Shown piece by piece: positions 1,052 to 59,496 of a stretch of 64,000 nucleotides of DNA; within the stretch, counting starts at the first letter, position 1; every line of letters begins with the position of its first letter. This DNA comes from Mytilus edulis. Lineage: Eukaryota. Made by a program: the position numbers and the translations under genes. The stretch covers positions 105,276,001 through 105,340,000 of the forward strand of contig NC_092345.1 of assembly GCF_963676685.1 (NCBI RefSeq), read 5' to 3'. The notes under the pieces are model-generated. The model did no database searches, was not told the DNA's origin, and worked only from the letters and a program-made list of their open reading frames with translations.

Positions 1052-1165
1052 AAACTCATCATAGATACCAGGACTATAAAATTTCGTATATATACGCCAG
1101 ACGCGCGTTTCGTCTACAAAAGACTCATCATTCAGTGACGCTCAAATCCAAAAAAAGTTAACAAA
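1052..1165 (-). mobile_element. Hammerhead-bearing Penelope-associated repeat, fragment with a 4-nt insertion in the core
   Basis: aactcatcatagataccagg...acgccagacgcgcgtttcgtctacaaaagactcatca[ttca]gtgacgctc; same family as 59415-59560. Other degenerate copies at about 6835-7005 (-), 7600-7765 (+), 36021-36063 (+), 49655-49740 (-) and 54500-54545 (+). Confidence 0.75.
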
Positions 1166-1190
1166 TTCAAATAGTATACCATAATTCAAA

Positions 1191-6200: not shown

Positions 6201-9200
6201 ATGTAAAACGAGAGCAATAGACACAAAGCAACTACATATATATAACAACACATTTATAGTTGAAGTTCAAAATAAATTACAAACAATAAATAAATCAAGT
6301 TCTCCAGACTGGCATTTTTGTTTTTATCTTGTTTTAGAGAATGAATTTTACTGTTGAAGCTATAAACATGATTTGTGATATGAGAAATGACCATCAGCTG
6401 GACTTAACTTGTTATGGTCATTTATTGGCAGCATTTCACGTGACTGTTGTGGAATTCCTTAGAGACAATAATAATAAGGTAAACACTTTTATAAATATTA
6501 CTTGTTGTTTTGCATCCCACAAATGAGTTTTTGTGCTGTGGTCATATTTTGTATTATTGTCATTCATTTTTGTTTATATGCTTTGTCTATATGTCATTTT
6601 TTTATTAACATATTGTGGTGTTTTTTTTAATAGTAATTAAGATTATAACACAACGTTGACTTCTATACCTCTATTTTTAACACTTTACCTACTGCAATAT
6701 GACTCTTTGTTTTGCTGACACATTGTTGTCAATATAATGGAATGATATGCGACTGTCGTACAAGTGAGAGGTTTAGCTAGCTATAAAAACAAGTTTAATC
6801 CACCATTTTCCTCATTAGGAAATGCATGTACGAAAAGTTATCAAAGGTACCAGGCTTTAATTTGATACGCCAGACGTGCGTTTCGTCTGCATAAGACTCA
6901 CCAGTCGCGCTCAGATCAAAATTGTTAAAAAGCCAAACAAATATAAAGTTGAAGAGCATTGAAGACAAAAAATTCCAAAATGGTGTGCCAAATACGGCTA
7001 TTAAGGTATTCTATGCCAAGTCTGGAACATGTCAGAGTTGTTTTCCATTCGTTTGATGTGTTTGAGTTTTTGATTTTGCCATTTGATACGGATTTTCGTT
7101 GGGATTTCGATATTAACTTTATTTTACTTTTTGATGGTCATATATAACATCAGTATTATCATTATTGTTTAAGCCGTTTAATACCATTTTATATTGACAA
7201 TAAACAGGTTGATTTGACGAGGATACTTAATTCAGTATGATCACTTGCGAATTTAAGATGGCAATTAAGAATTAATTTGACCCAAAACAATATAAAACAC
7301 TACAACGTTTTACAGGTGCTTGGGAAATGACCTCTACCTTTATGTATAATAAACGTTTTGTGTTTTCCTTTTTTTATCAAATATTTTGTCATATTCGATC
7401 TTTTGTTTTACTTAGTTTATGTTTTTTTTGTCCTTTTACATACGATTTTACAATAGCAGTTTTTACATGATGTCAACCAATTCATATGTTTTTCTTACAG
7501 GGCGTTTTTCAATAAAAGTGCGATTTTCAGACCTAAACAAATAGAAAAAAAACAACTGGTCTAAAATTTTATTACAAGTGTTATAACTTCAATTATAACA
7601 CAACGTATTTGGTACAATTTTTATAAATTTTGGGTCATCTATGCTCTTCAATTTTGTATCTGTTTGGCTTAATAACTATTTTGATCTGAGCATAACTGAT
7701 GAGTCTTATGTAGACGAAACTCGCGTCTGGCGTATTAAATTAAAATCCTGATACCTGTGATAATTAAATACTCTTCAAAACTTTTTTTTTCTCATAATTT
7801 AAATGCTGTTTCGTTGTGGACATCTGCTTCTAATTTAAAGCACATCTTATGGTATTTGTAATGTCTCCTTTTGACATTCTAGTTTATTTTATTTTATATA
7901 CTTGAAATATCTCATTTTTTTCTGAATTGGAGAACCATTTTTTTTATCGATGAAAAATAGACAGTACCCACATATGAAGGCACAACTCATGTTTCGTAGA
8001 GGGCATTTTGATGATTTTCGTAGTTGACAAAAACCGTTCCATAGTGGACAAAAAAGTTTCGTAGTTTACATCAACCCTATTGTATATTGATCAAAAATAT
8101 ATTGAAAGTTACATGAAACAAACCCTTGTTATTTGTTTTGCACGAATAGAATTGAAAAAAAAGTAAAAAACGACTGCATGGTAGTGGTAGTGTCCACTAC
8201 GAAACGTTATTTTCCCAAATTTGTTTCGTAGTTGACCGTTACGTAGTGGACATATTCACATATTTCATTTTTCTTCCACAATCTCTAAATTGCAAAAGTA
8301 ACAAAAATGATTCCTTTCATCAAAGCACATGCTAAGCCGTATACTGATATTTTTTTCATAATTTTAAAACCAGATAATGAAGGAGGTTTGAACCGTTTCT
8401 TAGTGGGCATAACAAAAAATACGGTACCATTCAGGTTCATTTGACGTGCTCATTTTTTTGCCAACAATTTAACTGCCGTTATAAACGCATCAATTCTATT
8501 GTAAGACCTTATAATGTTTATATCCAGTCCATTTCTTGCAAAAATAGATTATATCAAACTGGTTATTTTGAACCATTCAGGAATCAATATCTTATTAATC
8601 CCTCTGAAAACAGTATGTTTCTTTGCTTAAAAATGTTAAATCTAAATAAATGTACTGTCTGCACAAAAATACTTGTAAAGATCAAACACATTTTTTTTTA
8701 AAGTGGCTGGGACAAGAAATCTAGTTTTTATTGAAAAACGCCCATAAAAATCACAAAAGGCACATCATACAATTGCAAAAGAGAATTGTTTATAAAATGT
8801 TTTAAAGCATGTATATGTTCATTCTATAAAGCTGTCCATATCTACAATGTATACAAAAACCTAAACTACATGACTTTTTTAGTTATAAAAGTTGATTAAA
8901 CTCGATAAGTATGATAACCTTCATAATCCATCATGTATAGATTCCTTTCTCTTGTTTCGTGTCACAGCTGGATATACATTTCATTATTGAAGACTTCTTT
9001 TATATGGCCGATACGAACTAGTTTGATCTGGGTTTTATATAGGAGATTTGTCATTGATTATCTTTAACTGGAATCCGCTTGTATTACGCAACTCTCAAAC
9101 AGTGAACAAAGTGTAGTAGTCAGCTGAGAACCATCTTGTAATGATCTTTGGGGTAGTAGATAGACACTTCAACTTTCTACCCATTTCAAATCAGTGCACA

Positions 9201-22264: not shown

Positions 22265-25200
22265 TCAGTATTTCATACAATCAGCACTTGAGTACTGAGT
22301 ACATTGGGAGTTACTGGTCGATTCTGCATAACCTGTGATGTTACTTAATCCAGAACCTACAATAGAAAGAATTATTAAATGCTAAAACCTGGTAACATCA
22401 GAACCACAAATTGCATTTCAATATTTTCGTATTATTCTAAAACAAATGTTTATATGAGTAGTTATATTCTAAGTATTGCTTCTTAACAAAATACTTCTTT
22501 GAGGGATTCAGTCTGTGTGATAAAATTTATATATTGATTGTAACGTTTTCCTTTTTGTTCAATGAAGAAGTTACTGCCCAGTTATTTAACAACACAAACG
22601 GTAGTGAAATCACCTCTAAATCGAGTAGTCACCAACTACTAGTATCAGATTTCATATCTTTTTGACAGTGTTTTCCATTAGGCTAATTTTGATAAGACTA
22701 GTGTGTTTTATTAGCAGGCAGTATCATATATAAATATACAACTCATCTAAACTTGTGGCAATGTAGAGCTTGGCTTTTGGAATGAAACGTTTACAGTGAA
22801 CTCTGCTGATAACTAGTGTGTCAATTGGTCTCTGGTTGAAAGTTGTCTCTTTAACAATAATGCCACATCGTCTTATGTTAATAGCTTCCTTGTTTCTATG
22901 CATTGTCGCATCGCTGTATGAAAATTTTGAACTAATCTTGAAAACTATAAAGTGTTTTAATTCATTTACATAGATATATGAAGATGTGGTTTGAGAGCCA
23001 ATGAGACAACTCTCAATCCAAGTCACAATTTATAAAAGTAAACCATTACATGTCTGATACAAGCTATTAATTGACCATTTATGAGAAAATTGTACAATCT
23101 ATGAATCTTTAATTATTTACCTGTGATTAAGTTGTGTAGATTACAATAGTTTGTTCCATAGTCCAGTACTGCATACCAAGTTTCTGACGTAGAGTAACCC
23201 TGAAGTGGATAGAAAACATGTTAGGATAAGCAAGAACTATTTAACCAGTAATAGTGACAAAAAGTTAGATAGAAGCTCCTCTATAATAAATTACTAGTTA
23301 TCTGTTGGTATTGGTTCAAAATATTTATCGGTTTAGTGTTATTGCAAATCGTACATTTTGTTTTGAATATTTGTCATAGTACTGATTACATATTAAAGTA
23401 AACATTATATAGTACCTCAGTTTTACAATTTATCCCTGCATCACTATTTAAAGGTAAAAGATAAAAGTAAACATTACCTCAGTTTTACAATTCTTTTTTG
23501 AAACCTGTCGTATTACTGATTACAAGTTAAAGTATTAAAACATCCCATAGTACCTCAGTTTTACAATTCATCCTTGCATCACTAAAGGTAAAACATAAAA
23601 GTAAACATTACATAGTACCTCAGTTTTACAATTCATCCCTGCATCACTAAAGGTAAAACATAAAAGTAAACATTACATAGTACCTCTGTTTTACAATTCA
23701 TCCCTGCGTCACTAAAGGTAAAGGTCAAGTCATCTTTATAATGTTTGCTTGGAGTTTCATGTATGGCTTTTAAGGTATTGGTGGATTCACTAACGAACTG
23801 TAAATAAAACAATAATTTTACACACAATTTACATTTACAAAAATAATAAGTAGTTAAGAATATAATATTGTCTTTAAAACCATTAAAACATCAAAAGAGG
23901 CAAGCTTTAGTAACACTTTGAAATCTGACTGGAGATAAATACATTAAAAAGCCTCACATTACCAGTCTTCAATTGACATAGTTTTATTTATAAAGTGACG
24001 TTAGAACCCATGTAAAATAGTACTAGTAATGAATCGCTCACACTGTTGTACTCCAACTTCAGGACCCGCTAATTATGAAATGGTCTCTCAATAAATAAGT
24101 TTAAATTTGAAGACTACATTATTGCAACAAGTCTGCTAATCTTAAAAGAAAGAAAGGATATTGTAGATACATATAAGTATGTATATTTGGACTGACATCT
24201 AGAAAATGGCAAATTAAAAAATCGTTTGAGAACTTAATATGATTATAACTTTCCCATTGTTAACTTTCAATTTTTAAGTACATGCAGCTTCTGAAAATAA
24301 AGTACATGTGAGCTAGATGATACGATATGTAAGGCTTGCATTGCCTATTATCAAATCATTAGTAGAGGCTATGTCTTTCCATATAAATTTTGACTGCCCT
24401 CTTGGTAGCTACATCCTCATTATTTAATTCTTACTTTGTATAGACATTTTTCGCCTCCGTTCTTACAGTTGTCTGGTCCATTCCATAGTGCTATTTGGTT
24501 TTTCAGTTTTGTTTTTACATTACTACACGTCATGGAGGGAAACATCCTAAAAAAGATTCATAAGCAATGTGAGTGATAAAAACATAATAAAACAAGAATG
24601 TGTCCCAAGTACACGGATGCCCCATCCGTACTATCATTTTCTATGTTCAGTGGACCGTGAAAATGGGGGAAATCTCTAATTTGGCATTAAATTAGAAAGA
24701 TCATATCATAGGGAACATGTGTACTCAGTTTCAAAGTTGGTTGGACTTCAACTTCATCAAAAACTACCTCGACCAAAAACTTTAATCTGAAGCGGGACAG
24801 ACGAACGAACAGACGGCCGCACAGACCAGAAAACATAATGCCTATGAATGGGGCAAAAAAAACTAGAGGCTGTAAAGAGCATGTATCGCTTACATTGATC
24901 AATTGCATCTTCGACGATATGCAAAAAAAAACCCAAACAACAACTCATTAATTTGAATCCCAAATCTCATATTCCGAAGTCAAATCAAGTACTCTGGTAG
25001 AGCAAGCTTTTCAGCTTTTGTACAATTAGTTATGAAACCCGCGACTGACGCAAATACTAAGTTTATCTAAGTTTAATTACAACCAATTGGTCGATGCAAT
25101 CGCTGGTGGAGTTTTAATTCCCCCAGGGTACTATCACTAGCCCGGTAAGTTTTAATTCCCCCAGGGTATCACCAGCCCGGTAAGTTTTAATTCCCCCAGG

Positions 25201-26307
25201 GTATCACCAGCCCGGTAAGTTTTAATTCCCCCAGGGTATCACCAGCCCGGTAATCTGAGTAGTCAACTTCTATGTTGACATGTAAGTAAGTAAGTAAATA
25301 GTTTATTAAAGTTTCACATATTGATTGACATAAATATAAACAACATTATATAAATATATACACATAAAACAATCAATATCCAGCCATAAAAACGACTTAT
25401 GAGACACTAAAAAGCTTAAAATTGTCATTGATACGGTCGATCATAATTATAAGTTAATGAGTTTATTTATGAACCGTTTACAAAACTTTGAATTTTTTAA
25501 ATACTAAAGCTTTTCTACCTTATGAATAGATTAGAATTACCGTAGCTGTATTTGGCAAAACTTTTAGGAAGTTTTGGTCCACAATGTTCTTCAACTTCGT
25601 ATTTAATTTGGCATTTTAAACCTTTTTTTTCGAGCGTCACTGATGAGTCTTCTGTAGATGAAACTCGTGTCTGGCGCAAAAACTAAATTTCAATCCTGTT
25701 TTCTATGATGCGTTTCTTGGGAAATTTCAAATAATGAGTTGAAAAGTATAAGACAATGTCATCTGCAAAAACTAGGAGCATCCCCCAAAATAGTGCGGAA
25801 GACATTCATCAATCACGAATCACACTATACATCGGAGTAGTCGGTAAAGATAGGCCCTACTTACTTTAAAATTGCACAGAAACTTGGTATAGTATACAGA
25901 TGATGTTTTAAACTTTCAATCGTCTTCCGAATATTTATAAATTATTTGATACGAAATATCCCCACAGCAACCTCTTTGAACGAAACGAATTCGAGTTATC
26001 TCTCTTTTTTTCTTCTGAAATGGTTATTTAACTTTTTAAAAGAAATCAAACTGAAAGAGAAACAAGTTACAGGTTGTCACAATTAGTCAGTTAAAAATAG
26101 TAGAGTTATATCTTACCAATTAACTCTGCATGAGGCATGTAATGGGTTTGAAGCAGCAAATCCAACAAAAAGTCCAAGACCGGCTAAAACTACGACTGTT
26201 AATACGACCATTGTTATTTTACAACACAAAGGTATTTTCTTGCAACACGAACAGCAGGATTTAGGCGAATTATCAGTTCCAAGCTTCCGGTATGGTTTAC
26301 TGCTCAT
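22265..26307 (-). CDS. Uncharacterised 8-Cys family protein (DUF1499-like motif), predicted type II membrane form, 195 aa, 5 exons
   Basis: Minus-strand exons 26307-26117, 24546-24435, 23797-23684, 23199-23121, 22356-22265 (191/112/114/79/92 nt), all GT-AG. Protein MSSKPYRKL...CCSCCKKIPLCCKITMVVLTVVVLAGLGLFVGFAASNPLHASCRVNW-MFPSMTC...GGEKCLYK-FVSE...HETPSKHYKDDLTF...C-GYSTSETWYAVLDYGTNYCNLHNLIT-GSGL...CTQYSSADCMKY*. Exon 2-5 sizes are identical to both plus-strand paralogs. Confidence 0.9.
23395..23722 (-). repeat. 65-bp tandem duplications of the exon 3 end and splice donor of the minus-strand gene
   Basis: tacctc(a/t)gttttacaatt at 23413, 23475, 23551, 23616 and 23681; the last is the true donor. 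Confidence 0.9.
24591..24862. mobile_element. Short HINE/DINE-like element; inverted second copy at 28903-29189
   Basis: aacaagaatgtgtcc...(gac[ag])n-type microsatellite...gaccagaaaacataatgcc; reverse-complement copy at 28903-29189. Confidence 0.7.
25080..25715 (+). mobile_element. Longest copy of the hammerhead-bearing repeat (degenerate core at 25634-25677), with an internal 35-bp tandem repeat x4
   Basis: Its 3' part (ttaccgtagctgtatttggcaaaac...gagcgtcactgatgagtc...ctggcgc) is collinear with 40995-41170. Unit gttttaattcccccagggtatcaccagcccggtaa at 25111-25253. Confidence 0.7.
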
Positions 26308-30874: not shown

Positions 30875-31860
30875 ACTCTTCATATTTCCCATTGCATATT
30901 TCTGAATATCGTTGCTACCATACTATAGAATAATTCCTTGATAGAGGATTGCTGATCACAAGCTATTAAAGCAATAGTTCCAAATGGTGAAGTTGAAATC
31001 ATTTCTTCGTAAATTTTACAGACAACATCACGAGTTGGTTGATCGTTATATGGAATAAGCGTTTCACAGATGATAAAGGATATGTTACTTATGTCGTAAC
31101 TATAATCCGTTTCCCTATTCACTACGAATGTGACATATTGAATTAGACTATTTACCGGGTTTGTTATAACATGAGCAACACGACGGGTGCCACACTTGAA
31201 GCAGGATCTGCTTATCCTTCCGGAGCACCTGAGATCACCCCAAGTTTTTGGCGGTTTTCGTGTTGTTAAGTCTTTAGTTTTCTATGTTGTGTCATATGTA
31301 CTGATGTTTGTCTGTTTGGTATTTTTTTCGTTCCCTATTGTTAATTTTCCCTTTTTTGGTAATGTTCCTTTGGCACCATCTTACGGTGTTTATATTTCAC
31401 AGCTCGTTCGCTATGTTCCTGTCTGTTTTGACGTTTTCGATATTATTGAATATAATCTATCATGCATTACTGGTAAATTGTTAAGCCAGGGATTTCGTTA
31501 CCACAATTTACTTAAAGCCTTTACTAAATTCTTCCACAGACATAAATATTTGGTTTTGAAGTTTGGTTGTGCCTCTAGAAAGCTTATTTCAAACGGGATA
31601 GCACATCCTCATATTTACGGAGATGTTGTTTTATACCGTGCCCGGGAATTTAGAAACGATCCTGGCAAACTAATTAGCTTGTTCTCTGCTGAATGCTACA
31701 CTTTGTTCATAGTTTTTGAGTGTAGCGTAATACAAGCGGATTCCAATTGAGTAAACTTATTGATCCTTTAATAAAATTATTCTAAAGTGTTACCAATTCA
31801 ACACTGTAATTAGATCCTTGAATAATGTTTTATTGGTATTAATATTGATTTTGTTATCAG
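30875..31860 (+). mobile_element. Two fused Penelope-like fragments
   Basis: 30940-31320 is the reverse complement of about 4610-5000. From about 31325 the sequence encodes FSFPIVNFPFFGNVPLAPSYGVYISQLVRY...KLLSQGFRYHNLLKAFTKFF. Confidence 0.75.
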
Positions 31861-33316: not shown

Positions 33317-36300
33317 ATGAATAGTTATATTTCAGTAGCTCTTGTTGCTATCTTTGCTGGATGTTCAATTGCCTATCCAACCCATGCTTCCTGTAAAATA
33401 CAATGGTAAGTATATATTTGACATTTAAACTTATATTAGGACCATATGAACTCGGTAAACTGATATTCTATAAATACTTGAAGACGCACCAGGTAAACGT
33501 CAACGAAGGCATGCATTTGATTTTTCATTATAAGTACGTTTTCAAATAGCTACTTGAAAATTCGAACTCTATTCATTTATATATATATTTCAGAATTTTT
33601 TAATTGATCAGTTTGTATAAATTATTTGCAATATTCAGATGCAGTTCAATGCATTAAAAAAAAAGTCGTTAATACCGCCCACTTTTACTTCTCTTTTAAT
33701 TCTGACAATGGCTGGCTTGTAGTAAGTCAAAAGTTTACATATATTACGCATATAAAATAAAATTCCAAAAGTAATAGGTAACGTGTCTGAAGTTCTTATC
33801 GTTGGATTTCAAATATATTCTCTTATCATCAAATTATTTTACTGCCGCAGACACTATGCTATGACAAAATGGCTAGTTTTATTCTGAGATCTTGTTGAAA
33901 AGATCTTTACAATTTAAGCTCACTTTGCCTTTGAGCAATGCAAACTATTATCATCGCTGGCTCACCCTGCGTCCGACTCCCACCCTTCGTCGTCGAAATA
34001 TCTTCTTTTAAATATTTTCAAAAGACCATAGGACAAATATAAACCAAGCTAGAACTAACCCTTAGTTTGTCTGATATATATAAAGATTAGGTATCTGTTA
34101 TTTGACGTATCATCGTTTTTCGTCATGACATTGTCAGGGTTTTATTCGACTTAAATTAGTTGAATACATGTATCACGCTCAGGTGATGGAGGACAAGACT
34201 GTGGCTAAGATAAAAAAAAAATATATACTTGAACACGTTTATATTCATCTGTGACATAGATCATAATCATAACGGTCAACAAAATCATGATAATATCAGT
34301 ACACGATAAACATAAGCTATATTGAGCTTTTTGTCGTCTAAGTACCATTAAAAAGTATATTTCAAAGTTTCATGAACTGCAAAACATTCAATGGGATAAC
34401 TTTCCTGTTTTCAACCAAACGCAATCTTTGAATATTTCTTATAAGCAGTTTTGAACGTTTGTGAGCTACGGCTTAATAAATGGATAAAGGCATGTATGAA
34501 AATTCAAAAAGCTCAACAACTTCAATACTTTTTCGAAATCTGTGCAGGAATAGTTAAAATCCGTTTGGAAGTACTTTTGTAAATTCAGAACATTACACTA
34601 AATTTTATGTTTGGTGTTAATGCAATTTTTATTTGTAATTTTGCCAGGACATTTGGAATCAGTTGTGATATGGTAAAGGACAAAATCAAGACCCAGATCT
34701 CTACATGGAAAACAGCAGATAACTGTCCAAATGGAGCAGGCGAAAAATGTCTGTATACAGTACGTATTGTCAGGAGTTAAAAGTTGTCTATAATAGACAA
34801 GTAAAAAGTTGCTGCAAGAAGTTCTTTTACTTTATTAATTACAATTTTACCGATTAAGTATGTTTTATACATTTTAACATCAGTATTTTGTTTTAAACTA
34901 AAATATTTTAAATGCTATTTAAAACCTCTTTAGATCTGGTATGTTTTCTATTCGTTGTAAGCTCTACCTATACCGAAGGGTTTTGTTTTTGCAGATGAAC
35001 CAAACACATTTATAGTAGTATGCATTCCTTCATTTAACATAAGATGAGTGATATTGGCTACTGTGTGCACGGCATGTGTTTCTAATATATCCAATCACAA
35101 ATTAAAAAAAACAACATTATGTATCAAGTATTGCAACATAAAAAGGACCAGGACAGCTCATCATTTCTTTTTTAAGCCAATTTTACCCGAGCGAGTGTCA
35201 ATCATTCCTTAGTTGTTAAATATTTTCATGTCCTTATGTTAGGATCAGATATTTTTAAATCGTTGGAATTGTTGGATTCGAAATATGATCTTTCTATATC
35301 ATTTTATACTTAATATATATGCGTAATGTTGCAAGGAACTGAAGTAAATGAAACTGTTTACCAGTTCCTTTGTTCAAACGATCCTTCATACTGCATCGTA
35401 TAAAAAAATGTTTGGTATAGTTTAGCAGGCTGACTGAATGGTAAAAACAGTAAAGAGCCTCTTGATTTAGCGCAGTAATTTGAATATCATGTTTGAAAGA
35501 TACGCTGTAACTTGACTGTGACTAAATAGTACACCAACTTAAGAATTACAGACATATTTGCGGTAAGTACTGTAATATCATAATAAGACTAGCCTCGTTA
35601 TGTTCTTGTATAATGCAGTACCTTCATTATAATACTTTTAAATTGATTGTTTATTTATTTCACTTGATGTTTCAGTTTGTGAGTGAAACAGATACAACTA
35701 TAACAGCAAAACACGCGACACCAGTTAAACACTACATGGACGATTTGACCTTCACCTTTACTCCAAGTAACAGCATGTGCAACGTCAAGGTAATTTTAAG
35801 GGTTATTCGGATATGTACTTCTCTTTATACTTTTGTTATATAAAACAAAATCTTTGGTCACATGAAAATATTTAATTGATAAAATTTTCTTTTTTATGGT
35901 AAATACAATTCCGCAAGCGTCGCTCAATAGTATCGTCTATTGCGCGCGATCCGGTACCTATTGTCGATATATACATCTGGTGCAGTAAAACTTGTAGTGT
36001 AAATATTTTAAGTATTATATGCGTTTGGCGTACTAAATTATAATCCTGGTACCTTTGATAACTTTTTATGGCTTTATATGTTCTAGTTGTTTAATAAAGT
36101 AGGTAAGGTAAATTCGTTTTAATAATGTTTTAAAATGTTTTAATTTGTAGGGTTACTCCACATCAGAAACATGGTATGCTTACCTTGACTACAGCACAAA
36201 CTATTGTAATCTTAACAACCTTATCACAGGTATGTCATTACCTAATCATAGGTAGAACTACTATATTAACTTATATATGTAGGACTCTAAAGTGCGATGG

Positions 36301-38932: not shown

Positions 38933-39818
38933 AAATTATAAAATGTTTTTGATATTTACTTGATATTCTATTTTTTTCTTCATAGTCAGCCAACCAAGTT
39001 GGTTTCATCTTTAGAGAAACAAAAGATTTTGCAAAAACAATAAATGTAACAGCTCTTTTTGTAGTTACTATAATATAATATTTCAAAATTTGAAATTGGT
39101 ATTTCATTTCATATTGTTCTGCAATAATAAAAACTACAGAAGCACTTCGAGTCCTCAAGCCTCGTTGTGATCTTGTGGAGTTAACAAATAAAGACTGTAA
39201 AGTCTGTTGAACTTTAGATAACATGTAAGGAAACAAACAAAAAAGGAGTATATTATAATCTGTTTTCGCTGCTGTTACTTTAAAAAAAAAAAAAAAAAAA
39301 AAACGGTTATTATCAAACAAAGATCTATCATTAACGAAACATTTGGAGAGATGTTATCCATGGCTCAAATAACATTACGCAGAAACAAAAGATTTACACT
39401 GACTCGAGTCAATCAGTTGCTGATATAACACTGACCTTTGAAATAATGTTATAAAATATAATACGTTGTTTGTCATATCATGGACAATACGAAATTAAAT
39501 TGGGTAAAAGTTTAACATATGATTTAAAGGACAACATCATTACACCGAAATAGTAAGCAATTTTCATTCTTGATCCGTAATCTCAAAATCAGACAAAGAT
39601 ATCATCACTCGTCAGACATTATAGAAATTTAGTTTCTGAAAACATGGACAAACAGGTCATACATTTGGAAACACAATGATTGCCAAAGTTGTAGTCTAGG
39701 AATCGACGATGTTATTTTCACCTTTTGAATCTTCCTCCTCCATTATCTAGCCAAGTTCGGTTAAAACAATATTAAAGGTTCAAAGTAGTTATCAAAGGTA
39801 CCAGGATTATAATTAAGT

Positions 39819-39862
39819 ACGCCAGGCGCGCGTTTCGTCTACATAAGACTCATCAGTGACGC
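39819..39862 (-). ncRNA. Hammerhead copy with mutated cleavage triplet (GCC for GUC)
   Basis: acgccaggcgcgcgtttcgtctacataagactcatcagtgacgc; its duplicate at 41479-41522 is further mutated in the core. Confidence 0.6.
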
Positions 39863-40682
39863 TCATATCAAAATATTTATAACGCCAAACAAGTACAAAG
39901 TTGAAGAGCATAGATGATCCAAATTTCCCACAATTGTGACAAATATGAAGACGAACCGCGTTGTCTGGCGTATAAAAATATAATCCAGGTATCTCTAATA
40001 ACTCTTTATAATATACTATGCATAAACAATAATATCTACAACAAATTAGGTCTTGTTCCTCGGAACTTTGTTTCTTATCTCGCAAGGTCGTCGGATAATA
40101 ATTAAGTAGGATTTGTCTTATAAACCTAACCACACTCATTTAGTTCATCGAGAGATTACAAATAAAGTAGGTATAAAACGAGCACAATGATATGTACCAC
40201 AAATTAGGTCTCCTGTTTCGGACCTTGTTTTTCTTATTTTGCAAGGTCGTCGGATTACAAGTATATTGTTTATAAAACGTACCAAATATTCCTTTATTTT
40301 AATATCAAGGAATATTTATAACTTGTATTATACTCGAACATTGATATAAAAAGGTTCAGATTTAAAAGTATATCTAATTATTGGGTCTTATATTTAGATT
40401 ATACAGTACTTTTTAATGATTTCGAATTCAAATGCAAAATTTAAATTCTAAGAATGATTCTAACAGACCTAGCTTGAACATATTCCGACTTGTTCTTGAG
40501 ATTCAAATTGCTCTTTAATTAAAATAATTTGATTTAAAGAATATTACCATATTTAAGACGGAAAATATTGTATAAGTTTGTTAATTCAGAAGACCATTTA
40601 ATATTATATTCTTCGTTGAATATCTCGGACAGAAACTTCCCAATTAAATTATGAAAACAGTTTATATTTTGTAATTTTTTTG

Positions 40683-40715: not shown

Positions 40716-40994
40716 TTATTATTAAAAACAGAAACACTAGCATGATAAAAACAGAATTACTAGCATGCATGATAAAAACAGAAACACTAGCATGATCAAA
40801 CAAAGATCTATCATCAACGAAACATTTGGAGAGATTTTATCCATGACTCAAATGACATTACGCAGAAACAGAAGATTTACACTGACTCGAGTCAATCAGT
40901 TGCTGATATGACACTGACCTTTGAAATAATGTTATAAAATATAATACGTTGTTTGTCATATCACGGACAATACGAAATTAAATTGGGTAAAAGT

Positions 40995-41170
40995 AGATTA
41001 CCGTAGCCGTATTTGGCACAACTTTTTGGAATTTTGGGTCCTCAATGCTCTTCAACTTTGTATTTGTTTGGCTTTTTAACTGTTTTGATCTGAGCGTCAC
41101 TGATGAGTCTTATGTAGACGAAACGCGCGTCTGGCGTATTAAATTATAATCCTGGTACCTTTGATAACTA
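40995..41170 (+). mobile_element. Young 5'-truncated hammerhead-bearing insertion
   Basis: Absent from the duplicated copy, where the site reads gggtaaaagtttaacatat (about 39502-39520). Confidence 0.85.
41094..41137 (+). ncRNA. Minimal type I hammerhead ribozyme (Penelope/retrozyme type), intact core
   Basis: GCGUCA-CUGAUGA-GUCU(uaugu)AGAC-GAA-ACGC/GCGU-C-UGGCGU. Both core boxes are present, stem II is 4 bp, stem III is loopless and palindromic (ACGCGCGU), the triplet is GUC (cut after 41131), and stem I is 6 bp with two G-U pairs. Confidence 0.85.
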
Positions 41171-44164
41171 TTAACATATGATTTTAAAGACAACATCATT
41201 ACACCGAAACTGCAACCAATTTTCATTCTTGAACCGTAATCTCAAAATCAGACATAAGATATCATCACTCGTCAGACATTATAGAAAGTTAGTTTCTGAA
41301 AACATGGACAAACAGGTCGTACATTTGGAAACACAATGATTGCCAAAGTTGTAGTCTAGGAATCGACGATGTTATTTTCACCTTTTGAATCTTCCTCCTC
41401 CATTATCTTGCCAAGTTCGGTTAAAACAATATTACAGGTTCAAAGTAGTTATCAAAGGTACCAGGATTATAATTAAGTACGCCAGACGCGCGATCGTCTA
41501 CATAAGACTTATCAGTGACGCTCATATCAAAATATTTATAACGCCAAACAAGTACAAAGTTGAAGAGCATAGATGATCCAAAGTTCCCAAAATTGTGCCA
41601 AATATGAAGATATGAAGCGTGTCTGGCGTAAAAAATTATACTCAAGGTATCTCTGATAACTCTTTATAAAGTTCTAGGCAAAAGCGAATGATATGGTCCG
41701 TAAGTAGAATAACAAAAATACCGAGCGCCAAGGAAAACTGCAAAGGAAAAGTCGCTTATCAAATTGTAAAATCAAATGCTCAAACAGATCAAAAGAATAA
41801 AATAAAACTTTCATATAAACCTGGTTTTACAGCTAGCTGAACCTCTCACTTGTATGACAGTCGCAATAATTTCAACATATTGACAACAATGTATAAACTA
41901 ATTGATATAATAGGTAAGAATGTCAAAAATTTGGATACAGCAGTCAGAATTATGCTATTATCTTAATTTCTATAAAAGCAAACAACTCTATAAACCAGAA
42001 AAACAAAATGAAATACAAACAAAGCACTGTAAAACAATGGCGGAATGTAAAAATACCGAGCCATGTCAAAAGGATATTTTCAAAAACTGACTTAACAATA
42101 AAGTTCAAAAATATACAAAGACAATAAAAAGAACACTATAATATGTAATTAAGATGATAAATAACGTCAGTTTCTAGAATCTTCAAGACCATCATGTATC
42201 ATTTGTAAAGTTTAAATGGAATCGGTACCAGGACATCATTCGTATATATAGCTCAACGTGCATACATCTAATTATACGTTCATGTGTTTCACATCCTATT
42301 TGTTATGGTAATATTTCATAAATACCACAAACATGTCGGCATTCACCTCAAAAACTAAACCTTTAAACAGACTTTCCAGAAGTGATTTAGTTACGATACT
42401 ATTGTCAGGTCAATAAAAATATTGTATTGTATTGTATTGTATTAAAGATTGCATTTTTTTATTATCAAATATTGAATAAAGCATACTGTATCGGTCTTTG
42501 CATCGGAAATAAACACAATTATTCTTCTTCTCTTATATTTTATGATGATATGAAACCCCTTATGAGAGAATTGTGTGAAAAGCTGTCTATAAGGTTAATT
42601 GAGGTCTGGAGCTTGCATGTCAGTAACTACTAGTATAGTCCATTGTTTATTTATGTCATCATTGTTATTTTGCTTGGTTCCTTATGTTACTTATTCTAAC
42701 ATTGGACTTTGTTTTCTTTTAAACTGAGATTTACTGTGCGTATTGCTGCGTCATTGTTTATTCTACATTTCTAGAGGTGAAGGGGAGGGTTAAGGTATCA
42801 CAAAACATGTCGACTGTGCCGCACTTTTGTGCCTGTCCCAAGTAAGGGACCTCTGGCCATTGTTAGCTTTGTATGTTTTTTTCCGGTTTAGTAATAGAAT
42901 TGAGAAAGGAAATGGGGAATGTGTCAAAGCGACAACAACCCGACCATAGAGCAGACAACAGCCGAAGGCCACCAATAAGTCTTCAATGTAGCGAGAAACT
43001 CCTGCACCCGGAGGCGTCCTTCAGCTGGCCACTTAAAAATATGTATACTAGTTCAGTGATAATGGACGTCATATTGAACTCCGAATTATACACAAAAAAA
43101 CTAAAATTAAAAATCACAAGACTAATAAAGGCCAGAGGCTCCTGACTTGGGACAGGCGCAAAATTGCGGCGGGTTTAAACATGTTTATGAAATCTCAACC
43201 CTCCCCCTATACCTCATATGTTTCGGAGTTTTTTGTCCCATCCATCTTTTAAGAACTAGTACATATTTTTGTTTACAGGCCAGCTGAAGTTTTCTCCGGG
43301 TGAGGAGTTGCTTTCCTATCCTTGATTGATTTTGCTGTGTATTTGATGTACTTTGGAATGTATGTGCTTGAAAGCAATTTGAAAACATGTGCCTTTTTCA
43401 CAAATCGTTAGTTTTCAGTTTTAGTGATATTAGTTTTAGAGTGTTGAAGAGTAATTGTTTTCATCCAAAGTATTATTTGCAGATAATTCTTTTCAAACAT
43501 AATCTTAAATTTTGCCACTTTAGTTGAACAGTAAGATAAAAATATTAATATATTTCAGAAAAATACCAAAAAAGTTTGCTTAATCATAAGCGACAGTGTT
43601 CTGTTCACAACCAGTAGTGCAACAAATATTTGAATTTGAAAAAAAAGGGATTTCTAAATCTTTGCGTGTGTTGAGTACAAATGCAACACTAAATTTAAAA
43701 GTAAAAATTAATTGTTCACAATACTTCTACAATGTCCCACAGTCGTTTCTGCGCACTGACTAATTTTTTTTTATCTAACTTAATTAGTTTAAAGTATTCT
43801 ATTGTTCGAAATGACAAGTGGATCTGACTAAATTAACAGAAGCTGACGTCGAAATGTATTTTGAACTTTCCTGTGCTGTTACGCTGCTTTCATATCGACA
43901 TCAGTTCTACTTTTATCCTTGGATGATCATTATTCTAAGCTAATCAGCTGTGGTATCAAATCTTTCATTAGATCAAAAGATCAAGCAGCATACCAAGATT
44001 GTCCGACATTGATTAACATGTGAAATATCTCATGGCCTCATGTTAAGTCACGTTGTTTCTTATCATGTAGGGTCACTGATTTGTGTGACCAACTCCACAT
44101 ATATTTACTTGTCAGAGAAAAGATACTTTCTTTCTAAAGGATCCCTCTAAGAAGAATAAGCAGA

Positions 44165-47100: not shown

Positions 47101-50100
47101 ATAGGTTTAACAACTTGTGAGAATGTCGTTATTTAATTTCACTAATAATAAACTCGCCATAGGCTCGTTTATTATTATTGAAATTAAATAACTCGAGTTG
47201 ATATCAATCGATATCTAATTCTCACTCGTTATGAAACCTATAATTATGTAAGTGTTGATTAATATTGAGTTGAAGTTATATTATGATTGATTATTGTGAA
47301 ATTTTAATTTCAATACTGTATTGAATACATTTTTAATTTCAAGTTGTTGTTTAAATTTCATTTTTATTAAATAAAATCCTAAATTGATAAAATTCAGTTA
47401 ATAGATACAAAGAATAGGTCTAGTTTGGTTAAGACTCGGTCGAGTATGGTTGAGACTAGGTCGAGTACGGTTCAGACTAGGTCGAGTACGGTTCAGACTT
47501 GGTCGAGTACAGTTTAGACTCGTATAAAACGGTTAAGTACTGGTCAAGTACACATTCAGACTGTTAAGTATGGTTCAGAATTCAGTCGAGTATTATCAAG
47601 TAAATCTCAGACGAATTCAGACTGGTCGAGTAAACATCAGTACAGTCGAGTACAGATATAGGCCATTTCAGACTTTTCATGGTTTGTAGTGCTTATAACT
47701 TGTATTTTACTCGAACATTGATTTAAAAGGGTTCAGGTTTTAAAAGTATATCTAATTATTGGGTCTTATATTTAGATTATGTAGTACTTTTTAATGATTT
47801 CGAATTCAAATGCAAAATTTAAATTCTAAGAATAATTGTAACAGACCTAGCTTGAACATATTCCGACTTGTTCTTGGTGTCAGACCACCAATTACTCCCT
47901 CAAATTTAGAACGTATGTAAAAGTAGGCCTACTCGGGACAAAAAATAGTGCATTTGATGTCATTGTTTACTTAAACTACCCAACAAATTTGCAGAAATGA
48001 AACTTTTGGTGAAAGAGAAATATATTAAGACCATTTTGAGCCCAAATTTACTTGTCTATGAGTTGAAATTAAAAATTGAGGATTAATGCGCTCCATAGTA
48101 TACTAATTTAAGATTTCAAGAAAACCAGGGGTTATTTTTAGTGGTACATCCATTCGGAAGGTCTCTTCTTTCTTATATGGCTTTAAAGGTATGTCGAAAA
48201 TTGGCATGCAGAAAGGTGATACCTGTACGATTCAGGACATACCTGGTTTGTAAGAGGTTAAACTTAAGATAAAAAATTTAGAAAGCTATGAAAATTGCAA
48301 AATTTGGTTGAACAGGTAGGGACTTTTAATTGGTGGTCTGACACCTCTTGAGATTCAAATTGCTTTAAACTAAAATAATTTGATGTAAAGGATGTTATCA
48401 TATTTAAGACGGAAAATATTGTATAAGTTTGTTAATTCAGAAGACCATTTAATATTATATTCTTCGTTTAATATCTCGGACAGAAACTTCCCAATTAAAT
48501 TATGAAAACAGTTTATATTTTGTAATTTTTTAGGACATTTGGAATCACCTGTGATATGGTAAAGGAAAAAATCAAGACCCAGATCTCTACCTGGTCTACA
48601 GCAGATAACTGTCCAAATGGAGCAGGAGAAAAATGTCTGTATACAGTACGTATTTTGACTTTTCGTTAGTAATAGACAGGTATTTTACTGCAAGGAGTTC
48701 ATATACTTAATAAATTGTAATTTAATCCGTTATGTATGTTTATACATTTTGTTAGTATGTTGGGGTAAACATATATTAATTAGGATGAGGAAACAGTAGT
48801 ATACCACTATTCAAAAGTCATGAACCGATAGAGAGAAAATAAATCCGAGTTATGAACAAAAACCAAGGAAACACATAAACTGTAACTGTATAAACCTCTT
48901 TAGCTCTGGTATATTTACTGTTTGTTTTATGTAACAATTGTACTAAAATGAAACAAAATGGGTCGATGCGCTCACAAACTGAAAAAAGAATGTATTATAT
49001 GTAGAGTTTGTGAATCAGCGGCTCAATTATTTTATGGACTTCACCTTTTTTAATTTGCTTTGAAGTTCAGTTTTGTTTTTGGTATTCTTATTCTATAGAA
49101 TATGTGTTTAATTCATATATCTTGAAACACGCATTAATTACCTTTTTTCGACGCTGACTGTCGGTAATAATATCGAATCGGTCGCCATAGATCTAATGAT
49201 GCTTGACTAATCTGTACTATTCAGGAATATTACAGTTGTTATTCATTCGGTCGATGTGTATGAGTTTTGATTTTGCCATTTGATTTGGGTCTCTCCTTTT
49301 TTCAATTTTCCTCGGAGTTCGGTATTTTTTGGTATTTTACATTTTGTTTGTAACGACGTGGATGCTATCACAGTCACTGTTCTTTTCTCTAATTTAACGA
49401 AAATGTAATTTCTGATGTTTTAACATTCGTTTGTAAGTAAAGCAAGTGCAAACCATATCAATGCAAAAACGTTCAAAGAAATATAATTCAAAAGTACAAA
49501 AACAAAAGTCTAAACAGAACAGACAGTAACGTCAACTCATTGGACTATCATATAATACGTTTTTCAAGTTTTATTTTCGGCATTTTGTTCATATTGGCAA
49601 AACCTCGTTGACCATACATGGTTAAGACATATTCCATATATAATAATATTAATTAACTCATCAAAGATACCAGGCTTATTATGTTTTACGCCAGACGCGC
49701 GTGTCGTCTACAAAACGACTCAAAAGTGACATTCGAATCATTACAGTTATAGAATTTATAGATTTAAATCGTTATGTTCATATGAAATGTTATACCTTCA
49801 CAAAAATACTTGCATATTTTTAAATGTTATAAACTCGTTTGATTTTGGTTTAAATAGAAACATGTTTAATCGGTAGTTTCTACAAATGAAGATGCCTGTA
49901 ACAATTCAGGAATATGACAGTTACTTGTTAACCATTCGTTGGTGTGTTTGAGCTTTTAATTTTGCAATTTATTTTTTTATGGTTTTTCCGTTTTGCAATT
50001 TTTTTTGTTATCTTACTTTTTGATATTTTAGTTTGTTGGTGAAACAAGTACAACAATTACAGCAAAACACTCGACACCAGTGAAGCATTACCTTGATGAT

Positions 50101-52781
50101 TTGACCTTCACATTGACAGCAAGTAACAGTATGTGCAATGTCAAGGTAAGTCCAAGAGACACACAATTGAAATAGTTCAATAAACTCATCTTAGATACCA
50201 CGACTAAATTTTGTATATACGCAAGACGCGCGTTTCGTCTACAAAAGACTCATCAGTGACGCTCGAATCCAAAAAAGTTGAAAAAAAAGCCAAATAAAGA
50301 ACAAAGTTGAAGAGCATTAAGATCCAAAATTCCTAAAAGGGTTGCCAAATACAGCTAAGGTAAATAAAGGCAACAGTAGTATACCGCTGTTCAAAACTCA
50401 TAAATCCATGGACAAAAAACAAAATCGGGGTAACAAACTAAAACCGAGGGAAACGCATTAAATATAAGAGGAGAACAACGACACAAGGTAATCTATGCCT
50501 GAGGTAGAAAAGCCTTATGATTTCAAAAAATTCAAAATTTTGTAAACAGTTAATACATTCCTTCACATTTTTTTATGGATTGTCAATGATCATATGAAGA
50601 CATTGATTTGATTAACCTTCATAATCTAAGAAATTATATGCAAGGTGTATAAAAGGAGAGCATGTCATAGGACAAAAATATGCAAAACTTTACGAAATGT
50701 CAGAGAAAAAGTCAGAACTAAGTTACATATTTTTACTAGGATGCCATTTTGAACAAAAAGTAAGCATTTACAGTCAGTTTTGTTCGTTTTTTTTTAAATA
50801 AGGATAAAAACTTCGCTTATACACTTTTGGTCGTGGAAGACACGAATTTTCATCAGAATGTATGCGCCTTATATGATATGACCAATTGGAGATCGATTGC
50901 GCATGTGATATACATGTTCAAATGGTAAAAAGTATGTCAGATGTAAAGGTGAGACAAGAAAATGCACCAGGGGGCGATTTTTTGGGGTAAAGGCTCGTCA
51001 CAACGTCATAAAGGTGAGACAAGAAAATGCACCAGGGGGCGATTTTTTGGGGTAAAGGCTCGTCACAAAGTCATGCTTATACACATAAAAAGATGCTTTT
51101 CATAATCTTTTCATTGTGTTAAATTAAAAAAATTCTTACTGTACTAGTATATATTATCAGATAGATGTCCATTATCACTGTACTAGTATACATTATCAGA
51201 TAGATGTCCATTATCACTGTACTAGAATACATATTTTTTAAGGGGCCAGCTGAAGGACGCCTACGGGTGCGGGAGTTTCTCGCTACATTGAAGACTTATT
51301 GGTGGCCTTCAGCTGTTGTCTGCTCTATGGTCGGGTTGTTGTCGCTTTGACACATTCCAATTTCCTTTCTCAATTTTATTAGAATACTATTGCATGTAAA
51401 TATCTTATATAAATTATATTTTTGCATTTTTTTTATATCTAGATCAAATACCCATCGTAAATCTCAGCCTTGTCGATGGTTGATTGAATAGTCTCCAGAC
51501 CTAAAAGAAATAAAAGGGCATATAAACTCATAAATCAAAAATAAACTGTTAACACCATGTAAAATCATAAAAAGAACAAAAACAAACAATCATGAAATAT
51601 TGTTACTTTATGACGATTTCAATCTTTGTTTGTTGTTTCTAAGATTTGTTTAGTAATTCTGATATCTATTTTATAACGTTATTAGTCAAATTTGAGACTT
51701 GTAGTCAATTTTATGGGCATGGATTGCCAGGTAATTGTGAATTATATCGGTATATCTATGTATGAACATAAACATATGCATACCTGAAGTCGCTTACTAG
51801 TATAAGGTTTCGATTCTATCGTCCCAAGGTATCTCTTTTTGTAAATAATGTTGTTTACTTACATCTATCTAATAATTTATACTGTTTAAATTGTAGGGTT
51901 ACTCCACATCAGAAACATGGTATGCTCACCTTGACTATAGCACAAACTATTGTAACCTCAACAACCTGATCACAGGTATGCAATATCTTAATGTAAAATA
52001 ATATGGACACCAATACTAAAATTCAATTAAGTATACACATGTATTAAAAGCATAGCAAAAATACCAAACTCCTATTGAATTTCGAAAAATGAAAGTCCAA
52101 AAAATCTAATTAAATTAAAAGACATTATCAAGGAAGGACGAAAGATACCAAAGGAACAGTCAAACTCATAAATCGAAAATAAACTGACAACGCTTGCTAA
52201 AAATGAAAAAGACAAACAGACAAACAATAGTACACATGACACAACATAGAATAAACTGTTAACACCATGTCAAAACATAAAAAGAACAAAAAACAAACAA
52301 TCATAATATCAATTTACAGAACAAGTGAAAAAATGTCATATTCCTGACTTGGTATATCCTTTTCCTGAAGGATATTGTGGGTTAAACCTGGTCTTATAAC
52401 TAGCTATAAAAGAACCGTCTTGTATGACATTTGTCAGAAACGGCAGAAAAACCTTGCCATGTTAATGAAAGTATTTTTAATTGTATGGAATCTGTTCATG
52501 CAATTTAAATAGCCGTAAAGAGTAGAAAGGAAATGTCAGTATTAGCGCCTTATTTGTATCCAATATGTTAAAAGGAAAAACAATATACTAACGTTTTATG
52601 CAATTAAAAATTTAAATATTTAAACAGGCCTAAATATATTCTCAGGGGGTTATGCTATCAAAAAATGATTTGGTTTATTTTTATTTAAGGATCCGGACTG
52701 GACAAGGTTAACGGATACACCGAGGTTACCAGTGATAGTGTGTGCACACAATATTCCAGCAAAAATTGCGAAAAATATTAA
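44165..52781 (+). CDS. Uncharacterised secreted 8-Cys family protein (DUF1499-like motif), paralog B, 161 aa, 5 exons
   Basis: Exons 44165-44253, 48534-48645, 50032-50145, 51897-51975, 52690-52781. Same sizes and phases as paralog A; 16 of 161 residues differ by hand count. The last acceptor is AAG. Confidence 0.92.
46303..47101. mobile_element. Nested unclassified element with split inverted repeats
   Basis: ttctcttatggttggggcctgtta (46303) pairs with taacaggccccaaccataagagaa (about 46988-47011); ccataagagaaata recurs at about 47090. Confidence 0.6.
47102..47240. repeat. Hairpin MITE
   Basis: taggttt...gtgagaat..gttatttaatttcactaataataaac / gtttattattattgaaattaaataac..attctcac...aaaccta. 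Confidence 0.7.
47876..48345. mobile_element. 470-bp MITE, 19-bp TIR, 4-bp TSD TCTT
   Basis: ggtgtcagaccaccaatta / taattggtggtctgacacc; tctt on both flanks; empty site acttgttcttgagattc at about 40488-40504. Confidence 0.9.
50219..50262 (-). ncRNA. Minimal hammerhead ribozyme copy, core intact, one stem I mismatch
   Basis: acgcaagacgcgcgtttcgtctacaaaagactcatcagtgacgc, within a repeat at about 50180-50550 that is interrupted at about 50362-50485 by a fragment of another family. Confidence 0.7.
50944..51075. repeat. 65-bp direct tandem duplication (followed by a 41-bp one at about 51138-51230)
   Basis: taaaggtgagacaagaaaatgcaccagggggcgattttttggggtaaaggctcgtcacaa x2. Confidence 0.85.
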
Positions 52782-55312
52782 ATTATTTAGTAAAATTAGT
52801 ACAGTTAATGTAATTTTATAAATAAGAAGATGTGGCATGAGTGCCAATGAGACAACACTCCATTCAATTCACAAGGTAAAAACGGAAACAATTTTATGTC
52901 AAATCATGGCCTTCAGCATGGAGCCTTAGCTCGCACAGAACAGTAAGCCCCAAAACGACTAGTATTAAACAATTCAAACAGGAAAACTAGCAGTCTAATC
53001 TATATAAAAAACGAGATACAAGATATAAAGGCAACGGTAGTATATCGAAGTTCAACTATAGGAGGAAAACAAGTGTAACAAAAGAACACCCCGCTTTTTA
53101 AAAATATCTAAAAACGAACTATTTAAAAACTTATGAATCGCGCTAACAAACGACAACCACGGAAAAACAGGCTTCTGACAGATCACAATAAAATGTCAAT
53201 ATAAAAACTTCCGTATTGTTTCAATGTGTAGTCTTGAGTAATTGAGGAAATGGCGGGAACAGTAGTTTGCCGATGTTTGGATCTGATCATTCGATTAGGA
53301 AGAAACAAACAAAGAAAAAAAATTAAACATGAAGAAAGTCTGACCCCAGAAGGAGCAAGATCGGGTGCTTCGAGATTATAAGCGTCTCTTACTGTGCAAA
53401 CCTTACCCAACATGCGAATCTATTCAGTCACACTGTCACATTCGGTAACAGAAAACAATCCGTTAAAGAACAAGTTATATGACTTATCTTGTCAATAAAG
53501 ATCTTAGACCGCAAAAAAAAAGTATCTTGAGGAATTTACACACAGACACATCGTATCAGTCAACCAATTCATGATCGTTACCGTAAAACTTAGTTGGTAT
53601 TGATTTCAATCTTTCTTCCTAAACATAGATTAAAGCAAACGTTAAAATAAAATAACTTCGAAAGGATAACAAAATCATTTGAAGTAAACTGATATACTCT
53701 TCCCGAGTGAGTTTAGTTTCGACATAACTTATAAATTCTTAAAGGGACGCTTTTAGAAAGGTGTTATAATTCATATGAAACCTAAATACTGATTACTTAG
53801 CTGAAAATACCATCGGGGATTGATAATAAAACATAGTATTGAAGGGCAATAAAAAGGCGAAGGATACTAAAGGGACAATCAAAACTCGAAGAAAAACCCC
53901 AAATGACATAGCAAAAAATGAAAAAGGCGAAAAGACAAGCAGCAATCTAAAATGCAAAACAAAGAAAACTATATGCTGAACAGCACAAACCGGAATTGAA
54001 AATTTCTTAAAGTATCGCGAAAGTTAAGTAGATCCTGCTCGCCTAATGACACCGGTCAGTGTGTTTACAAACATTATATTGTTGGGGCTGCCAAATGCTC
54101 GTGAAAACATCTTACAAAATTACTAACATCTTTTTGATCACCGATCAATAGCGACAACATAGAAGTATTGGTTTGCTAGATAACGTCGTGTTATGGTACA
54201 TGCCGGGTAACTCAGATGTCATCTTCATTTCGAACTTTATACAGGGAAACGTTTGATTCTGGGGATAATACCAAAATCAGATAGTAAAAATATTGAAAGA
54301 TTACTTGGAATATGATGTACATGTACATACAATATTTGTGAAGATGTCAATGGTGATATCTAAAATCCAAGGTCCAATAAAAACAGTCAACTGGTTATAC
54401 ACTTAAATGATAATACGAAAGCAATGGCAAGTGAATATTTCGGACACTTTTTTCAATTATTGAATTGGTCTTCCAACAGTTGTTTATTTGTGATCCACGT
54501 ATGAGTCTCAAGTAGGTTACATGTTTGTCTGGCGTATTAAAATTTGGGCGGAAGACACCAAGGAAACATTGAAAACTCACAAAATCCACAATACATAAAT
54601 GTTAAACCTGGTATCTTTAATGACATTTTTGTAGACCGATATTATTTAATGAAATTTTACGTGCGTTTATAAAATGTTAAACGATAATGTTGTTGATAAC
54701 ATTTCAATTTACTCCAAACAAAAATTATATAAGTCAAACTTTAACCGGTGTGGCTATTTGTAAATAAGATGTTTACCTTGCAAAATCTTGTTAGGTACCA
54801 TAATATATGTTATAGCAAAACTTTGTTTGTTCTCTGTCGGGAAGGTTTGAAAAAATTGTATGGGTCCAACCGAACACTATTTATCGCCTGTGATGGCGAT
54901 TGTCGGATTAAAAGTATAATGTTGATCTAAAATACAGAATTTTTAAAAAAAAGTTCAAGCTTTTTCTATATAAATGATATTTTATGATCTTGAAGAATAA
55001 CTTCAGTCCAAGTTGCACAAAAAGAATGTCACATGATCGACAAAACGAGTACTTTTGTATCCATTTAGGCTATATATATATATACAAGTAGTTTAAATTC
55101 GCCTTTAAATGGCTGACTGGCTATAGTCGTGTGGTTACATCGTATAAACAAAATAAAATAACTAAAAACAAGGGTTTATCCCTGATAAAAAAAATCATAT
55201 AATACATTAAATTATCAGGCCATTAACCTGATTGTACCACGGACGCAATTCAGTTTTTATTTTTCAAGTGAAGAGTGTGTAGATCATACACTTAAATCTA
55301 ATAAATAAGTTA

Positions 55313-59452: not shown

Positions 59453-59496
59453 ACGCCAGACGCGCGTTTCGTCTACAAAAGACTCATCAGTGACGC
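59453..59496 (-). ncRNA. Minimal type I hammerhead ribozyme, intact core
   Basis: Reverse complement reads GCGUCA CUGAUGA GUCU uuugu AGAC GAA ACGCGCGU C UGGCGU. It lies in a repeat copy at about 59415-59560. Confidence 0.85.

Follow-up and report, generated by a model that had tools for sequence, protein, structure and literature searches.

We find that the hammerhead ribozymes scattered through a 64,000-nucleotide stretch of Mytilus edulis DNA (the window) are genuine. With a probability of about 70%, they are 5'-clipped copies of tandem type I retrozymes, likely those of the Mytilus family already described, and were likely inserted by a Naiad-clade reverse transcriptase (RT) recognizing a shared stem-loop. 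The window itself holds 5'-clipped solo copies only, which are ordinary dead fragments. The hammerhead ribozyme and the retrozyme class are known; what is credibly new is a helper signal at the level of the family, namely the stem-loop shared with Naiads. A literature search, with most subscription journals outside its coverage, found no publication linking retrozymes to Naiads via this stem-loop.

The original prediction had listed 11 copies of a hammerhead repeat. A profile built from 42 genomic monomers, all lying outside the window, was searched against the window and its reverse. All 11 places matched, and the reversed window gave no match. Inspection of core and stems bore out the 41094 and 59453 copies as intact, the 50219 and 39819 copies as near-intact (one stem I mismatch and a U16.1>C change, respectively), and the remainder as decayed, with lesions in the core. 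The two proposed subtypes, A and B, are real and 83% identical to each other. Copies and fragments in the window were as follows.

40995..41170 (+): 5'-truncated subtype A insertion of 176 bp, about half of the 355-nt unit, 98% identical to unit L016
59412..59561 (-): subtype B solo copy, intact hammerhead at 59453-59496
50180..50558 (-): subtype B copy with one stem I mismatch, split by a 125-bp insertion at about 50362-50486
39783..40008 (both strands): subtype A copy (-, U16.1>C) and adjoining inverted tail fragment (+, 39943-40008)
41443..41666 (both strands): segmental duplicate of the 39783-40008 structure, core damaged
25032..25717 (+): decayed subtype B copy, almost unit-length
1044..1173 (-): decayed subtype B copy with a 4-nt core insertion
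6831..7017 (-): decayed subtype A copy
7603..7767 (+): decayed subtype A copy
36021..36068 (+): subtype A tail-only fragment, starting about at the cleavage site
49652..49751 (-): decayed copy
54458..54544 (+): strongly decayed copy, the weakest of the 11 listed places (E 1.1e-4, family profile)

Several pieces were absent from the earlier list. They comprise the stretch 25032-25339, which belongs to the 25634 copy as its 5' part, three tail fragments (36021-36068, 39943-40008 and 41615-41666), and a piece at 50484-50558 that the 125-bp insertion detached from the 50219 copy. The interrupting sequence is one member of a 125-bp repeat pair (20262-20383 and 50362-50486, 96% identical). Only the 25032-25717 copy retains a Naiad-type stem-loop, damaged and internally duplicated (about 25079-25147). 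The 39819 and 41479 copies are one insertion, doubled along with its segment; the window carries a local tandem segmental duplication there (39291-40035 vs 40774-41694, ~93% identical). The 40995-41170 insertion lies in one arm of this duplication, and the empty site is found in the other at 39511/39512. It has no target-site duplication, and microhomology is seen at its 5' (AGT) and 3' (TT) junctions. One contig of run X16 lacks the insertion and fits either duplication arm. The 41094 copy within it holds a single hammerhead site, whereas an active retrozyme locus would have two or more in tandem on one strand. Although reminiscent of Penelope-type inversions, the inverted tail at 39943-40008 shows several base differences from its neighbour and could have inserted separately.

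Frames elsewhere in the window include two (3233-4027 and 12633-12947, +) that resemble exons encoding a secreted protein rich in Thr and Ser. Two others (17005-19029 and 37774-38807, both -) are broken retroelement frames, by eye presumably of Gypsy type and L1/Tx1 type. Pfam returned no family above cut-off in ten window frames, 3233-4027 and both retroelement frames among them.

The motif at 41094-41137 (+) reads GCGUCA-CUGAUGA-GUCU-UAUGU-AGAC-GAAA-CGCGCG-UC-UGGCGU, with predicted cleavage after C41131. Its elements are given below.

41094..41137 (+): intact canonical type I hammerhead, assigned by core pattern, covariation and the Rfam match of the identical 44-mer in L016
41094-41099/41132-41137 (+): hammerhead stem I
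41107-41110/41116-41119 (+): hammerhead stem II
41123-41124/41129-41130 (+): hammerhead stem III, with GCGC loop
41084..41143 (+): stem I extension UUUGAU/AUUAAA beyond a CUGA bulge, from predicted folds
41132..41170 (+): 39-nt tail 3' of the cleavage site, reaching the family's fixed 3' terminus, the putative start of reverse transcription

Three exact matches to the hammerhead core pattern were found in the window (41100+, 50226- and 59460-) against 0.00 expected from 100 shuffles. The type I layout of RF00163 is present, comprising CUGANGA, GAAA and the UH core, three helices and an open helix I. The L016 44-mer, identical to the 41094 copy, matched RF00163 over its full length with 33 bits (E 2.2e-6), missing the gathering score of 34. 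A scan of the window at Rfam gathering thresholds was empty because the hammerhead scores one bit below this cut-off. Core and GAAACGCGCGUC stem III are those of RF00163 (Hammerhead_1), whereas stem I differs and the stem II loop is shorter than in the consensus. Most bases for loop 1-loop 2 tertiary contacts are missing in the mussel hammerhead according to the accessible text of PMC7229834. The isolated 44-mer folded no better than shuffles (z +0.85), and whole retrozyme circles were predicted to be no more stable than shuffles. Among 20 genomic sequences from four subfamilies, 96.8% of stem cells were paired (slid controls, 14-52%), and the covariation of stems I and II that the original prediction had looked for is present. 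Five of the 14 hammerhead pairs changed on both sides, across all three stems, in few independent events (A/B vs C/D). Stem III shows a C-G>U-A covariation among the subfamilies.

The repeat had been described as a dispersed family. Dispersed motifs do exist, but the family is mainly a tandem unit of 350-365 nt, and the dispersed copies are its 5'-truncated by-products. Recent activity as a non-autonomous retrozyme family, also proposed, is upheld by genomic copies that are 97-99% identical and form tandem arrays. The suggested genome count gave 11,700 exact occurrences of the 34-nt core of subtypes A and B in the 1.37 Gb genome (control 0); exact cores of subtypes C and D numbered 3,336 and 764. 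Tandem units measure 355 nt (A), 362-368 nt (B), 341-351 nt (C) and 547 nt (D). Each A-C unit carries one type I hammerhead, and its size fits the 150-450 bp criterion for metazoan non-LTR retrozymes. GC content is 36-39%, the retrozyme criterion being <50%. Units are more alike within arrays than between them (99.4% vs 92.5% for subtype A; 98.6% vs 95.2% for C), and homogeneous arrays are also obtainable by DNA-level expansion. Subtype C (350-nt unit; L217/L218, L237-L240) has compensatory changes in all three hammerhead stems, and the family profile search found no clear copy of it in the window. Subtype D (L304:1532-2079 among its 764 genomic places) is a tandem hammerhead family with a AUCCGGAU stem III and without the Naiad motif described below.

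The 350-365-nt family likely corresponds to the Mytilus non-LTR retrozymes already described, matched by size, number and the presence of two similar families. According to the available part of the report on Mytilus galloprovincialis (Cervera and de la Pena 2020, PMC7229834), these carry type I hammerheads in ~350-390 bp tandem repeats and comprise two similar families with thousands of copies, low GC and abundant RNA. Circles and their ligase-mediated closure are published there as well. In contrast, at least four families were found here, a comparison made by description, not sequence. The accessible text of PMC7229834 gives no description of the fixed 3' terminus or the Naiad signal reported below, and treats Penelope-like elements as candidates only.

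From 60 loci picked by core pattern alone we obtained 64 elements for a terminus count. The element ended +33 to +57 past the cleavage site in 58, and 45 held a single cleavage site. The 5' ends of copies were spread continuously over the whole unit. In 6 of 83 elements (one duplicate row of 84 dropped) the 5' end fell within 4 nt of the cleavage site, a weak excess over the ~2 expected if uniform. Cleaved linear templates, which would place 5' ends at the cleavage site, were rejected, since most copies read through the site. Since sequence from either side of the cut is present in the copies, their template ran through it unbroken.

In retrozymes A, B and C and in four Naiad classes, the terminus lies a median 22-23 nt upstream of a GCYG(T)GTGGA motif. 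Ends fell within -30..-14 of this motif in 72/92 (A), 66/75 (B) and 17/17 (C) retrozymes and in 25/28, 39/43, 9/14 and 26/29 Naiads of the four classes, at loci partly selected by similarity to queries ending at the terminus and with two Naiad classes pooling related 3' ends. The motif is found at +64 (A), +71 (B) and +56 (C) from the cleavage site. Subtype D ends at +368..374 in 14 of 23 cases, often within (TA)n. Because this motif-less family ends so far from its hammerhead, the ribozyme does not set the insertion end. Subtype D probably uses another helper.

Young Naiads and retrozymes A, B and C alike show, where their tandem units join, the arrangement GCYG(T)GTGGA-hairpin-TCCCCG inside nested stems. 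The stem-loop patterns have 11,607 and 289 genomic occurrences (controls 4 and 0). A 71-nt segment is the sole sequence shared by retrozyme A and the intact Naiad of L235 (86% identity, E 7e-19), and it forms the start of this young element. The same bulged stem-loop is predicted in both, with pair-preserving changes. A 1000-aa open frame in the L235 Naiad encodes an N-terminal GIY-YIG together with VVYGLECNLCGLVYVGET, CTC and PADKA; Pfam places GIY-YIG at 135-172 and RVT_1 at 645-854, both below cut-off. At least 40 copies at 99-100% identity are present among the matches listed. A loose core scan of its 3370-nt unit found no CUGANGA..GAAA on the sense strand. Naiads encode EN-RT and, in the available part of Craig et al. 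2021 (PMC8557442), are without hammerheads, whereas the retrozyme shares just 71 nt with them. The retrozymes resemble Naiads as described there in 5' truncation, partial tandems, an inverted neighbour and AT-rich targets, and share their 5' motif GCTGGTGGA..TCCCCG. The motif stands near the 5' start of Naiad consensuses in the accessible supplement of that paper, which come from corals, oysters, clams, mussels and hemichordates; its accessible passages make no mention of the motif. No BLAST-level match to the stem-loop was obtained in older Naiad loci or in two selenocysteine-type Naiad families; in these the motif is visible only by comparing tandem junctions.

The original prediction had further proposed a Penelope-like helper with remnants in the window. 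Such remnants are present, and their RT sequences belong to the Naiad clade, without hammerheads, under assignment criteria taken from the accessible text of PMC8557442.

4535..5235 (-): candidate helper Naiad, 3' remnant, 93% identical to the L235 intact unit
30934..31327 (+): candidate helper Naiad family, remnant, 86%
52133..52251 (-): candidate helper Naiad family, short 3' end, 92%
31355..31850 (+): remnant of the RT C terminus from a second and older Naiad family; its relatives carry a DKA motif and lack a C-terminal endonuclease

The older Naiad family has a CUGAUGA in its 3' region, which was considered as a hammerhead and rejected, as no GAAA partner exists. At window positions 32130-32200 and in L062-L080, CUGAUGA occurs with a short stem and without GAAA, resembling the 'half core' cases in the available part of PMC8557442. 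Two young Naiad families (L155:6388-9399 and L169:2543-5686) have four to five in-frame TGA codons at cysteine-like positions, including after the DKA motif. They are candidate selenoprotein Naiads; the accessible portion of PMC8557442 lists such families just for two clams and two spiders.

Transcription of the family was assessed on a 351-nt stretch centred on the cleavage site (L016:1100-1450), which drew 5,190, 5,882 and 9,295 reads per 7-9 million records in three stranded runs from one study. Reads in the unit interior ran ~6:1 to 11:1 in the ribozyme-sense direction; a fourth run looks unstranded. Read depth was steady across the cleavage site and many reads wrapped around the unit. Reads across the site fit circles as well as uncleaved multimers or precursors. 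At the 41094 locus only the insertion was covered, with no reads on its flanks in two stranded runs, and loose read ends ran on into the full retrozyme unit. This RNA therefore stems from other loci. The main RNA variants differ by sample; 1286 T>A, for instance, accounts for 65% of X23 sense reads vs 31% of those in X21. This suggests that each animal has few source loci.

The reading of the original prediction, that these are minimal, obligately dimeric hammerheads of a dispersed Penelope-type repeat, seems unlikely to us. It held that stem III lacks a loop and cannot close within one molecule. We find that stem III closes through two base pairs, A15.1-U16.1 and C15.2-G16.2, capped by a GCGC tetraloop, just as in the Rfam Hammerhead_1 consensus. 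The term minimal also does not apply, since by sequence the retrozyme hammerheads are canonical type I, with helices of 6/4/2 bp. The minimal Penelope-like hammerheads, as described in the available part of PMC4209133, share the type I topology and likewise have a helix III region that is palindromic. Unlike the window hammerhead, with its 6-bp helix I, 4-bp helix II and no extra base, they have no helix III, a helix II of 7-8 bp, a helix I of 4-5 bp and an extra base before helix II. Genome-wide, moreover, the repeat is a tandem unit. A cloned M. galloprovincialis retrozyme monomer, likened to ours by description rather than sequence, cleaved at ~0.1/min in the accessible part of PMC7229834, and most invertebrate retrozyme hammerheads are described as monomer-active in the literature available in part. 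Dimer dependence is unsupported because stem III closes as in the consensus and the published mussel monomer self-cleaves. Other evidence speaks for pairing between molecules. The A15.1-to-U16.1 region reads as a perfect palindrome in each of the four families (CGCGCG, UGCGCA, UCCGGA) and stays one through the GCGC>CCGG loop change, although a free tetraloop has no need of such symmetry. The 8-bp stem III duplex was modelled at -13.3 kcal/mol vs +1.7 kcal/mol for the hairpin, and closing of stem III costs ~0.8 kcal/mol in the folding model. A helix III of 1-2 bp hinders monomer cleavage according to the accessible text of PMC4209133. Because the stem III region is palindromic in every family and the modelled duplex far stabler than the hairpin, dimer assistance of cleavage is plausible. 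A lone ribozyme is likely active, and pairing into a dimer may speed it up.

Three further readings concern the insertion step. The shared segment could be a promoter or transcript-boundary element, so that the terminus marks an RNA start or stop and not the RT start; we judge this quite unlikely. The segment does lie at the extreme 5' start of Naiad units, the site of Penelope-like promoters. However, its pair-preserving changes indicate RNA structure, and RNA reads extend past the tail and enter the segment (loose ends: 496 in X21, 1,136 in X23). No pile-up of read starts or ends was seen at the cleavage site or the fixed terminus, in fragmented libraries that are weak at showing ends. It is very doubtful that the family derived from, and was moved by, a hammerhead-bearing Penelope-like element (Neptune/Poseidon pseudo-LTR), as proposed for vertebrate retrozymes. 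The available part of a preprint (10.64898/2026.07.22.740005) derives vertebrate retrozymes from hammerhead-bearing repeats and relates those of Xenopus to such repeats. Subtype D, with its 547-nt unit and (TA)n targets, may be one example. Yet the hammerhead-free Naiads are the sole Penelope-like elements in which homology was found, in a comparison that left out Neptune/Poseidon, and it is the Naiad motif that the termini track. Spread at the DNA level, Helitron-like or through extrachromosomal satellite circles with the ribozyme as passenger, is barely credible. It would suit the missing target duplications, the AT-rich targets and the tandem arrays, but the terminus spans several bases and differs in sequence by subtype, 5' truncation is continuous, the ribozyme stems covary, and the RNA is abundant and strand-biased. 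A Helitron was rejected on the grounds of variable terminus, truncation, covariation and RNA strand bias.

We thus return to insertion by a Naiad-clade RT as the preferred reading. Tandem arrays elsewhere are transcribed in the ribozyme sense, as the reads of this family show. Hammerheads would then release monomers for circularization by a host ligase, as published for the Mytilus family. A Naiad protein may bind the bulged stem-loop, which lies at least 34-49 nt beyond the junction, and nick AT-rich DNA. Judging from the termini and by analogy with Poseidon, the cDNA would start ~22 nt upstream of the GCYG(T)GTGGA motif / GCUGGUGGA. Poseidon_Ac (Frangieh et al. 2024, PMC11167929) initiates internally, downstream of its hammerhead, with cleavage dispensable; its ends, like those here, are set inside the RNA past the hammerhead cut and join AT-rich DNA. 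It is otherwise an autonomous element of another clade with an AC-rich stem-loop, likened here by description, not sequence. The RT would begin with the tail, go on to the hammerhead and lastly to the body, usually falling off early. Such early stops would leave most insertions with one hammerhead and no stem-loop, which is the pattern observed, and copying tail-first would explain the dispersed lone hammerheads that lack it. The 41094 copy would be a dead end because it has one ribozyme and no stem-loop. Longer copying runs, presumably by rolling circle, would give homogeneous arrays.

The shared stem-loop likely sets the start of reverse transcription, and this would name the Naiad as helper enzyme. 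Mobilization in trans by a Naiad protein is likewise likely, on the basis of shared sequence and terminus geometry. We lean towards viewing these retrozymes as chimeras of a canonical hammerhead and a Naiad 5' stem-loop, which would act as a ~22-nt ruler and let small circles be copied repeatedly into the genome, with a sister hammerhead family using another helper. In the cited papers the helper of animal retrozymes has so far just been proposed; the shared stem-loop, the fixed distance and an intact Naiad make the question testable in vitro. If true, this would give a telomerase-related reverse transcriptase a defined RNA signal for initiating internally.
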